Shown: piece after piece, positions 2,527-33,340 of the stretch
Layout: each line of letters starts with the position of its first letter
Position numbering within the stretch: the first letter of the stretch is position 1
Source of the DNA: Escherichia phage BEU44
Direction: 5' to 3' (one strand)
DNA length: 64,000 bases
Sequence record: OM632670.1
Program-made: the position numbers and the translations under genes
Notes under the pieces: model-generated
What the model was told of the DNA's origin: nothing
Seen by the model: only the letters and a program-made list of their open reading frames with translations
Databases searched by the model: none

Positions 2527-2858
2527 ACAGTTTCATCAACAGTTTCAGTAGTAGTTTCTACTTCAACTACTTCTTCTTTTTTCTTACCAGTAGCAGAAGC
2601 CAGAGCACTGACAGCAGCAGTATTGGTCTGGGTTACTGGACGATGCTTGCGTTCCTTTGACTCTTTCTTTGGTTCCTCAACCACTTCAACAGATTGGGAA
2701 CCAGCAGGGACAATATCTACGATTGCAGTAGCACCATCATCACCACGAGTAGCTTTGAAGGTTACTTTAATTTCCATACCTTCACGTACAGACATCAGGT
2801 CGTTTACATAACCAGTCAGAGCAGCTTCGATTTCAGGTTGGGTCAGGATTACTTGCAT
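2517..2858 (-). CDS. hypothetical protein (113 aa)
   Basis: ORF between RuvC-like and rIIA-like genes; 10-nt overlap with rIIA start; no recognisable motif. Confidence 0.4.
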   Translation of the reverse strand: MQVILTQPEIEAALTGYVNDLMSVREGMEIKVTFKATRGDDGATAIVDIVPAGSQSVEVVEEPKKESKERKHRPVTQTNTAAVSALASATGKKKEEVVEVETTTETVDETVCK

Positions 2859-2860
2859 TG

Positions 2861-3418
2861 TTATACCTTTGATAAAATTCTCATTAAATTCTGGAAAGCA
2901 GGAGTGAGTACCCCTGCATGGATAGCACCTACAGCATCAGCTAAATGCTCGTTCTTATTGAGTAGCCTACCTTTGGTATCCTTGAGCCAGTTGGCCTCTG
3001 GATAAAATCCTGTAGCTGCTCTAATCATCACATCTTTAGAAGCAGTCTTAATACCGGACAGAGCTACTTTGTTCTCGATGGGAGTAACCTCAATAATCTC
3101 ATGTCCTAGTGCCCTAAGTGCTCCTAAGATGCCTACACAAACACCATAGGATTTCATTCCATTGGCACTTTGTGAACCAACGGGAACCTCTACAAAGATG
3201 ACCTTTGCTTCTTTGAACCAGTCGATGACACCAGCAGTAATATCCTCGGCAGCTTGCATATCTTTGCTGTTTTGCCTTACTTGCTTGGTTCCATCAGGTT
3301 TGGTTTCTACCAGCTTCAGGTTTAATCCAGAGAGTATTCCCGTCTCTAAGTCGAGCATTCCCCGTGCTAGTCCCCAGTTACGAAAACTGGGGTCAACTCC
3401 AAGCACAGGTATCTGCAT
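2861..3418 (-). CDS. putative RuvC-like Holliday junction resolvase
   Basis: 185 aa; N-terminal LGVDPS and later FVEVPVGS resemble RuvC/RNase H-fold acidic motifs; ATG at 3416-3418 abuts SSB stop. Confidence 0.45.
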   Translation of the reverse strand: MQIPVLGVDPSFRNWGLARGMLDLETGILSGLNLKLVETKPDGTKQVRQNSKDMQAAEDITAGVIDWFKEAKVIFVEVPVGSQSANGMKSYGVCVGILGALRALGHEIIEVTPIENKVALSGIKTASKDVMIRAATGFYPEANWLKDTKGRLLNKNEHLADAVGAIHAGVLTPAFQNLMRILSKV

Positions 3419-28572: not shown

Positions 28573-28763
28573 AATCTCCTTATATATTTGTAAGCCTCAA
28601 GTGGAGCCATACCTAAATTCTCAACAGGTACAATCATTTCTTGAAGTGCATATTCATGGTCACGTTGTTCTTTCTTGGTTCTACAATGACCACACTTACC
28701 ATCCCATTGGGATATATAGCCTTTACCACATTTGCATTGTTTACCCATTAGGATTTTCCACAA
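28563..28763 (-). CDS. small zinc-ribbon-like protein
   Basis: 66 aa; CKCGKG...CGHC four-Cys arrangement. Confidence 0.3.
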   Translation of the reverse strand: MWKILMGKQCKCGKGYISQWDGKCGHCRTKKEQRDHEYALQEMIVPVENLGMAPLEAYKYIRRLCK

Positions 28764-29109
28764 AGTAGTTATACATAGCTTTTACTAACTTCTCTTTAAT
28801 AACCTCGCCATGACAAGGTTTTGGATAACAGAAGCATTGTAAAGCTAATCCTTTTTCATCAATGGCTTTATTACCAAGACGATTTAATTCATCCAGTACA
28901 ACTGGATTACCTTTATCAATCTGTTCTTGTAGCCATACTTTATATTTGGCAATTACTTCTTCTCTGGTTCCATCTTTACCAATAACGAATGGATTACCCA
29001 GAGGAGAACCACGCCCAATATATTCACCCTTTTTACCATGATGTTTATTAACAATGATAATAGGTCTGGCTGACACCCCAAACAGAGCATTAGTGTTATC
29101 ACCTAACAT
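28741..29109 (-). CDS. hypothetical protein, DUF4326-like
   Basis: 122 aa; IGRGSPLGNPF motif recalled for DUF4326. Confidence 0.3.
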   Translation of the reverse strand: MLGDNTNALFGVSARPIIIVNKHHGKKGEYIGRGSPLGNPFVIGKDGTREEVIAKYKVWLQEQIDKGNPVVLDELNRLGNKAIDEKGLALQCFCYPKPCHGEVIKEKLVKAMYNYFVENPNG

Positions 29110-29111
29110 AG

Positions 29112-29432
29112 TTAACTCCTTGATTTAACTACCTGAAATGCATATACAGGTCTTCTGGATTTCCATTGACTCATAGCCAATTCACTTGGTTCTGAGCCAT
29201 CATGTAAGTCATAAATAAATGAAATTACATAATCAGGTTCTTCAGGGAAATTATCTGTAGAGAAGGGTAAACTGGCTTCTTTCAGAATGGGAACTAGTGG
29301 TGAATTAGCATCACAATATAGAGTAAATTCTTCTTTAAATGCTGGAGTTGTCTGAGCTACATAATCAATATTACGCATCATTTTATCAACATCATTAAAA
29401 TCAGCATCATGAACAATTAATATTGTTTTCAT
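29112..29432 (-). CDS. hypothetical protein (106 aa)
   Basis: ATG at 29430-29432 overlapping upstream stop by 1 nt. Confidence 0.3.
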   Translation of the reverse strand: MKTILIVHDADFNDVDKMMRNIDYVAQTTPAFKEEFTLYCDANSPLVPILKEASLPFSTDNFPEEPDYVISFIYDLHDGSEPSELAMSQWKSRRPVYAFQVVKSRS

Positions 29433-29608
29433 TATTTCACCGTAATACTTTCCAGATATTCTTCAAAATCTTTCTTAGACTGATAAAGTCGAATACGAGC
29501 TTTATTCTGGTCAGGGAAAGTTTTTGCTTCATTAAATGCCTTCATAGCACTAAGGCAGTTGAAGGCTAACTGTTTAATAGCCATAGCCTGGGATTCACTG
29601 ATTCCCAT
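29432..29608 (-). CDS. small protein (58 aa), not in ORF track
   Basis: Hand translation MGISESQAMAIKQLAFNCLSAMKAFNEAKTFPDQNKARIRLYQSKKDFEEYLESITVK; ATG 29606-29608 preceded by GGAGG; TAATG overlap with next gene. Confidence 0.4.
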   Translation of the reverse strand: MGISESQAMAIKQLAFNCLSAMKAFNEAKTFPDQNKARIRLYQSKKDFEEYLESITVK

Positions 29609-29930
29609 TAAGAGCCTCCATAATAATCTTACGGATTACATTCACTTCCAGTTCATTACCAATGAGGCCAACTGGTTTGTCAGTAGCATCCATAATGAAT
29701 TTAGCAATTCGTTCCATTTCAGCCGTAATGAGCTTGTCACCGCTTACCAAACGGTTACGAAGATATGCCTCATAAGCTGCTGCTATATCTTCATCCGTGG
29801 TTCTCTCATTTTTCTGGAATGGATTGCTCAAAGGCATTGGATAATGAATACGAATATTCCTGTCAGCAATACGAGCTTTATGCTGTGGGATAGCAATGAT
29901 TTGGTTCATAGAAGTCCTTCTAACATACAT
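29595..29930 (-). CDS. hypothetical protein (111 aa)
   Basis: ORF in early-gene cluster; contains LSNPF. Confidence 0.3.
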   Translation of the reverse strand: MYVRRTSMNQIIAIPQHKARIADRNIRIHYPMPLSNPFQKNERTTDEDIAAAYEAYLRNRLVSGDKLITAEMERIAKFIMDATDKPVGLIGNELEVNVIRKIIMEALNGNQ

Positions 29931-30121
29931 GCTTTCATAATTGCATCACGAAGCAATCCTGCACATGCAGGAGTCTTTCCTGTAGCAATATGAGTTACGT
30001 AATAGGTCTTGGATTTCTCTCCACGATGTAATTCATAGATTGGCTTGCCATAAACGAGAAATAACCAAGAACCTCTTACTTGATTGCGTTTAATCTTATA
30101 ACCGTAGTTTAACTGTTCCAT
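29906..30121 (-). CDS. hypothetical protein (71 aa)
   Basis: ORF in early-gene cluster. Confidence 0.3.
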   Translation of the reverse strand: MEQLNYGYKIKRNQVRGSWLFLVYGKPIYELHRGEKSKTYYVTHIATGKTPACAGLLRDAIMKACMLEGLL

Positions 30122-30157: not shown

Positions 30158-30190
30158 ATAAAAATAAGAAGAGGGCTTAGTAGCCCCCTC
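30158..30190 (-). terminator. putative intrinsic terminator
   Basis: GC-rich stem gaggg/ccctc (30171-30175, 30186-30190) preceded on plus by ataaaaataagaa = U-rich on minus transcript; just after stop at 30195. Confidence 0.4.
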
Positions 30191-30194
30191 CTAT

Positions 30195-31603: not shown

Positions 31604-31635
31604 AAAATTAAAAAGGACTACCCGAAGGTAGTCCT
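31604..31635 (-). terminator. intrinsic terminator
   Basis: 9-bp stem aggactacc/ggtagtcct (31614-31622, 31627-31635), CGAA loop, preceded on plus by aaaattaaaa; 8 nt after stop at 31643. Confidence 0.6.
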
Positions 31636-32197: not shown

Positions 32198-32221
32198 AAA
32201 AGGAGACTCCGAGGAGCCTCC
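32198..32221 (-). terminator. putative intrinsic terminator
   Basis: Minus transcript ggaggcuccucggagucucc followed by uuuu (plus A-run 32198-32201); lies between gene ending 32234 and promoter at 32137. Confidence 0.45.
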
Positions 32222-32605: not shown

Positions 32606-32624
32606 CCATAAGTTGCGAAGCAAC
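32606..32624 (-). promoter_or_regulatory. hairpin promoter of N4 virion-RNAP type (P1-like)
   Basis: ccataag + stem gttgc/gcaac (32612-32616, 32620-32624) with loop gaa; same spacing and CCA..AAG element as the other two; 47 nt upstream of ATG at 32560. Confidence 0.55.
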
Positions 32625-32673
32625 GTGTAACGTGTACAAGGTGGGGTAGGCTAAGGCTACACTAGTAAAGACC

Positions 32674-33312: not shown

Positions 33313-33340
33313 AAAAGAAAAAGGGAGCCAAATGGCTCCC
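33313..33340 (-). terminator. intrinsic terminator
   Basis: 7-bp stem gggagcc/ggctccc (33323-33329, 33334-33340), loop aaat, preceded on plus by aaaagaaaaa = U-run on minus transcript. Confidence 0.55.

Follow-up and report, generated by a model that had tools for sequence, protein, structure and literature searches.

Gene Organization at the Locus

The window is the whole stretch of DNA that was analyzed, 64,000 nucleotides of Escherichia phage BEU44 (OM632670.1). On its minus strand, between the counterparts of the phage N4 genes gp9 and gp11, there is a reading frame of 58 codons, hereafter gp10 (Table 1). The sequence and the list of open reading frames give its 58-residue translation as MGISESQAMAIKQLAFNCLSAMKAFNEAKTFPDQNKARIRLYQSKKDFEEYLESITVK. 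The peptides contained within this frame include QLAFNCLSAMK and DFEEYLESITVK.

Table 1. Coordinates of gp10, its expression signals, and the surrounding features in the window.
Feature	Position	Strand	Description
TAATG junction	29430..29434	minus	gp10 stop and gp11 ATG (29432-29430) share one base
gp11	29112..29432	minus	106 aa, function unknown; phrog_7827, E 5e-55
gp10 CDS	29432..29608	minus	58 codons plus TAA; start ATG 29608-29606, stop TAA 29434-29432; N4 gp10 ortholog; predicted two-helix hairpin
Shine-Dalgarno GGAGG	29615..29619	minus	6 nt before the gp10 ATG (spacer ctctta), within the 3' end of gp9
gp9/gp10 overlap	29595..29608	minus	14 nt; gp9 TGA at 29597-29595
gp9	29595..29909	minus	start according to the N4 annotation; longest ORF begins at 29930; phrog_464, E 4e-20
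Antisense ORF	29559..29993	plus	144 aa, TTG start; opposite gp9
Terminator-like hairpin	30167..30192	minus	11-pair stem followed by TATTTTTATC; pattern match from a consensus scan only

The length of the frame alone is not significant. About 50 ATG-initiated frames of at least 58 amino acids are expected by chance per 64 kb under a first-order Markov model, versus 123 observed. When a GGAGG at positions -14 to -4 is also required, the expectation in the same kind of simulation falls to 0.2 per window, and no frame of at least 58 amino acids with both a GGAGG and a TAATG end was found in 30 simulations. Because of these simulations, the combination of GGAGG and TAATG is considered to be beyond chance expectation. 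The initial annotation had described an ATG preceded by GGAGG and a TAA that overlaps the next ATG as TAATG, and both signals are present in the sequence where it placed them. The GGAGG is a strong Shine-Dalgarno sequence. The initial annotation had also described the frame as filling a gap in the early gene cluster. The frame is real, but the clean gap is not, since the first 14 nt of gp10 lie within gp9.

The genes from gp8 to gp14 are tightly packed, with junctions of -4, -14, -1, +2, -8, and -4 nt according to the list of reading frames and the N4 annotation. This chain of overlapping genes bears out the earlier suggestion that the frame follows the translational-coupling pattern of the cluster, and such coupling is probable here.

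The long plus-strand frame opposite gp9 had been called probably spurious, and this holds. The antisense frame of 144 amino acids has no match in Pfam or PHROG. The stop-free run in which it lies covers 168 codons, and only the near-identical genomes of the N4 type retain it. On the contigs L004 and L005 the antisense frame is closed in the region orthologous to gp9, the longest antisense runs being 55 and 71 codons, respectively.

The neighboring gene gp9 (29595-29930) and the gene gp12 (28741-29109), both on the minus strand, each match phrog_464 and DUF4326; for gp9, the DUF4326 match reaches 21.9 bits and is under the 25-bit cut-off. By their sequences, gp9 and gp12 look like diverged paralogs placed two genes apart.

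Identity with gp10 of Phage N4

Over the 1.8 kb surrounding the frame, the identity is 98.1% to N4 and 100% to Escherichia phages BEU5, BEU13, BEU14, and BEU51. The records of these four BEU phages are without annotation. The N4 annotation maps one-to-one onto the reading frames of the window from gp3 to RNAP1. In N4, gp10 is found at 3106..3282 in EF056009 and NC_008720 (protein ids ABK54381.1 and YP_950488.1), between gp9 and gp11. It has the same overlap with gp9 (2805..3119 in the N4 annotation) as the frame described here. The two genes differ at 3 nucleotides, and the proteins are identical at 56 of 58 residues (96.6%), the only changes being A24V and K58R. Position, length, and overlaps are identical, and nothing of substance sets the two apart; the isolate here is BEU5-like.

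The 58-residue frame is thus the ortholog of N4 gp10, an ordinary gene that was already known. A CDS is present beneath the gp10 match in all eight of the other annotated N4-type records, where it is named gp10 or hypothetical protein. The protein matches PHROG 35919 (phrog_35919, function unknown) over positions 1-58 of 58 with an E value of 4e-45 (hmmscan). Profile, synteny, and coding constraint all place gp10 in this family. The initial annotation had regarded the frame as unannotated. That description does not survive comparison with the N4 records and PHROGs, and the absence of the gene is limited to the track of reading frames with a 60-residue cut-off and to the unannotated BEU records.

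Coding Constraint and the Homolog Family

The N4 species group is too alike (3 nucleotide differences) for a test of constraint, and more distant homologs were used. The ortholog on the metagenomic contig L005, P0003, is 64-66% identical to gp10, depending on the alignment method. Between the two, pS is 0.67 and pN is 0.19, which gives a dN/dS of 0.13 with synonymous sites saturated. Against more distant homologs the dN/dS is 0.19-0.41. A profile search found six relatives among 1.84 billion cluster representatives, and 17 family clusters of 53-66 amino acids were found by profile among a collection of 5.8 billion proteins. Across these 17 clusters, which occupy varied genomic contexts, the protein retains 32-45% identity and its length is conserved. 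The ribosome-binding site is also kept. GGAGG or AGGAG precedes the homologs in L005 and in Klebsiella phage MY01, and L005 retains both the GGAGG and the same TAATG junction between gp10 and gp11 that is found in N4. It is concluded that gp10 is under purifying selection and is a genuine protein-coding gene, as the initial annotation had held; the frame is conserved in relatives, and the constraint is evident against an ortholog of about 65% identity.

A frame that opened by chance in the spacer between gp9 and gp11, in DNA constrained for some other reason and left untranslated, would agree with the roughly 50 frames of this length expected by chance in the window and with the uninformative N4 species group. 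The low dN/dS against L005 at saturated synonymous sites speaks against such a chance opening, as do the conservation of protein and length across the clusters, the conserved ribosome-binding site, and the confidently predicted fold described below. A non-coding reading of the frame is extremely improbable and can be regarded as effectively excluded.

The family is rare. With tblastn, gp10 was found in 15 of 50,697 phage records, namely 14 N4-type coliphages and Klebsiella phage MY01. The MY01 homolog (PP056534.1, 40656..40829; 2504-2680 of L003) has 58 residues and 40% identity to gp10 (E 2e-5, tblastn). An AGGAG site precedes it, and its stop codon, TGA, overlaps the TTG with which the next gene starts. 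In the MY01 record, PP056534, the place of the homolog is left without annotation, with a gp6-like CDS on one side and a CDS named 'SLOG cluster4' on the other, and it appears that a gene call was missed there.

MY01 belongs to Pylasvirus in the Humphriesvirinae. Its homolog is like that of N4 in its length, its position in the early region, and the overlap of its stop with the next start. It differs in sharing only about 40% identity and in its neighbors, which are a gp6-like gene on the upstream side and, downstream, a YAcAr/SLOG gene followed by a gp2 homolog. The MY01 homolog and its metagenomic relatives P0002, P0005, and P0009-P0017 have the conserved segments IKQLAF(N/E)C and F(D/E)xYLxx(I/L)T in common with gp10. 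Judged by these similarities, the gp10 family reaches another subfamily of the Schitoviridae at about 40% identity and with the same length.

Many of the Pylasvirus-type homologs (P0005, P0009-P0012, and P0014-P0017) have a four-residue N-terminal extension, MGEPM or MGVAM, before the M(L/I)T start that is otherwise conserved. The ATG of the extended start overlaps the preceding gene, and because of this the inner methionine may be the true start of these homologs.

Genomic Contexts and Accessory Status

Seven contigs carrying a homolog were read, and in all seven the homolog is surrounded by blocks of small genes on the same strand. Recognizable N4 early genes (gp4, gp6, gp9, gp11, gp12, or Phage_N4_Gp2) are present on five of these. 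Two arrangements were found. In the first, which is seen in N4, L005, and L008, gp10 is directly followed by gp11 and, where the contig reaches, by the DUF4326 gene gp12. In L005 the order is gp9, two extra genes, gp10, gp11, and gp12, and the L008 homolog is 45% identical to gp10. In the second arrangement, a gp6-like gene is followed by gp10, a YAcAr/SLOG gene of 119 amino acids, and Phage_N4_Gp2 (PF26984), and parts of this order are present in MY01, L006, L010, and L011. In L007 and L009 the homolog lies among small same-strand genes, and no recognizable N4 homolog was found in either gene neighborhood.

The block of small genes in L005 also contains a gene for an HNH_3 (PF13392) endonuclease, at 389-880. 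There is no counterpart at that place in N4.

The most divergent member of the family, P0007 (53 amino acids), lies at 4001-4162 of L009, which is the 90-kb contig SRR31968126_623. It is found a few small genes downstream of genes for PRPP synthetase and NAPRTase (163-2723 of L009). The family may therefore also be present outside the typical 70-kb N4-like genomes.

In Gamaleyavirus, gp9, gp11, and gp12 are kept and gp10 is missing. Because these relatives retain the flanking genes without it, gp10 is considered to be a sporadic accessory gene of the early region of the Schitoviridae. Gamaleyavirus has a gene of 85 amino acids before gp11 that was considered as a possible diverged gp10; it has no similarity to gp10 and is a replacement.

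Megablast similarity to Gamaleyavirus (about 82%) begins exactly at the gp11 ATG (29432) and runs to about 28700. The similar stretch covers gp11 and gp12. The point at which it begins marks a sharp mosaic boundary at the gene junction, with gp10 on the side that is not shared.

The adjacency of gp10 and gp11 could indicate that the two products form a two-protein module, with a stoichiometry set, for example, by coupling through TAATG. The pair is retained at about 65% identity in L005 and at 45% in L008, and N4 and L005 have an identical TAATG junction. However, gp11 occurs without gp10 in Gamaleyavirus, and in MY01, L010, and L011 the gene that follows the gp10 homolog is the YAcAr/SLOG gene, not gp11. 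A gp10-gp11 module is unlikely.

Protein Properties and Predicted Fold

The gp10 protein is small and mildly basic (6.7 kDa, pI 8.9, GRAVY -0.45, nine lysine and arginine residues versus seven aspartate and glutamate). It contains no hydrophobic stretch of membrane-spanning length, and no catalytic motif was found in it. In the AlphaFold2 prediction the protein is a hairpin of two helices, residues 5-27 and 31-56. The mean pLDDT is 94.2 with an alignment of 3 rows and 95.1 with one of 17 rows.

Conservation within the family is concentrated in two segments. The first is in residues 4-21 (T4, Q7, I11, K12, Q13, L14, A15, F16, C18, and A21) and the second in residues 45-56 (K45, F48, Y51, L52, I/L55, and T56), with L14 and Y51 invariant across the family alignment. 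The first segment corresponds to the N-terminal half of helix 1, and the second to the C-terminal half of helix 2. In the model the two segments pack against each other at the hairpin's open end, and the turn end (residues 22-44) is variable.

Database searches gave no assignment of function. The best matches to gp10 were DUF7230 in Pfam (13.4 bits versus a cut-off of 27) and NifT in NCBIfam (12.7 bits versus a cut-off of 41). Precomputed Pfam domains were absent from all 17 family clusters, and a profile search of PDB sequences with gp10 returned nothing below an E value of 0.4. Matches to annexin or Vipp1 were considered and discarded as sub-threshold noise (E above 0.08). With Foldseek against the PDB, there were 435 matches, all with E values of at least 0.66. 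They are generic helical hairpins of unrelated proteins (MexA, CnrX, EncB, and BAR domains) and were not used to assign a function. In BFVD the sole significant match was the same protein from phage OLB145, and the others were uncharacterized hairpins. Since the fold is generic, the structure is uninformative about a specific partner.

Possible Role of gp10

The gene lies in the left-end early block, which in N4 is transcribed rightward and ends in the genes for the RNAPII subunits, gp15 and gp16. Early expression is inferred because gp10 is upstream of these two genes and on the same strand. The N4 RNAPII (gp15, gp16) must be made before middle transcription, and N4 early products act as RNAPII cofactors (PMC4496689). 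The literature search found no paper on N4 gp10 and no study of it by transcriptomics, ribosome profiling, proteomics, or genetics. Neither ribosome profiling of N4 nor a toxicity screen of N4 early genes was found in the same search.

It is proposed that gp10 is probably part of a polycistronic mRNA and translated by means of its own GGAGG ribosome-binding site, and that its translation is probably coupled to gp9 upstream through the overlap and to gp11 downstream through TAATG. The product would be a soluble, mildly basic, small early protein. It may first pair into a dimer that forms a four-helix bundle, and it would then bind a partner protein stoichiometrically through its conserved open end. 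Its part in early infection would be accessory and non-essential, either in host takeover or in counter-defense. Partner binding is suggested by the small size of the protein, the lack of a catalytic motif, and the presence of polar residues on the conserved surface. The chances that gp10 acts by stoichiometric binding through this end are judged to be about even.

One possible form of this role is that gp10 neutralizes a specific host factor or defense through the open end. The family would then be one largely restricted to the early regions of the Schitoviridae, and its patchy occurrence would reflect host-specific counter-defense. This possibility is tentative. A comparison can be made with Aqs1 of Pseudomonas phage DMS3 (PDB 6v7u, 57 amino acids), a small helical early protein that binds a host protein, and the likeness would lie in how gp10 may work. 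Aqs1 is similar to gp10 in size and in its two-helix architecture, with a Foldseek TM of about 0.66. It is unlike gp10 in that the match is not significant (6v7u_B, E 2.3, 14% identity) and there is no sequence relationship. Assignment of gp10 to the Aqs1 family, or as an anti-activator hairpin, was rejected on this E value and on the generic fold.

The mild positive charge of gp10 is also compatible with nucleic-acid binding. As a small transcription cofactor, it might dimerize and bind DNA, RNA, or the RNAPII machinery in the manner of gp1 and gp2. It shares the early block with gp2 and the RNAPII genes, the Pylasvirus-type gp10 lies two genes upstream of Phage_N4_Gp2 (PF26984), and early products of N4 have been published as cofactors of RNAPII (PMC4496689). 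However, nearness to gp2 may merely reflect a compact early region, and the Pfam, NCBIfam, and PDB profile searches found no DNA-binding motif or family match. In addition, gp10 is missing from Gamaleyavirus and from most of the Schitoviridae, which have the same transcription scheme. Because relatives with this scheme are without it, gp10 cannot be a core cofactor, and a cofactor role of any kind is improbable. Stoichiometric binding of a partner protein is the preferred reading.

Significance for Annotation and Screening

The results carry little weight beyond annotation hygiene, and nothing points to an unusual mechanism. A cut-off of 60 amino acids hides real genes in the early regions of phages. 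The gp10 family is under-annotated, with the homolog left out of at least one public record, that of Klebsiella phage MY01. Two modest additions are the extension of the family, at about 40% identity, to another subfamily of the Schitoviridae and the predicted hairpin with its localized conserved surface. To our knowledge, the N4 early genes besides gp1, gp2, and gp15/16 are almost wholly uncharacterized. As a conserved, confidently folded accessory protein of 58 residues, gp10 is a cheap candidate for pull-down or toxicity screens for factors of host takeover or anti-defense.

Hairpins in the Early Region

The terminator-like hairpin listed in Table 1, which has a T-run, lies between gp7 and gp8 and marks the upstream limit of the compact block from gp8 to gp14. 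This block may be read through the hairpin or from a separate promoter. Four strong terminator-like hairpins with T-runs are present on the minus strand, this one and those at 31614-31635, 32202-32221, and 33323-33340. They punctuate the early region, and the terminator scan gave 9 sites in total versus 4.0 +/- 2.1 in shuffled sequences. A search for the early promoter hairpin of the N4 virion RNAP, with a P2 query whose sequence is possibly wrong, gave no match. Some of the terminator-like hairpins are followed by short hairpins, GTTGCTTCGCAAC at about 32613-32625 among them, which could be candidate promoter hairpins for the N4 virion RNAP.
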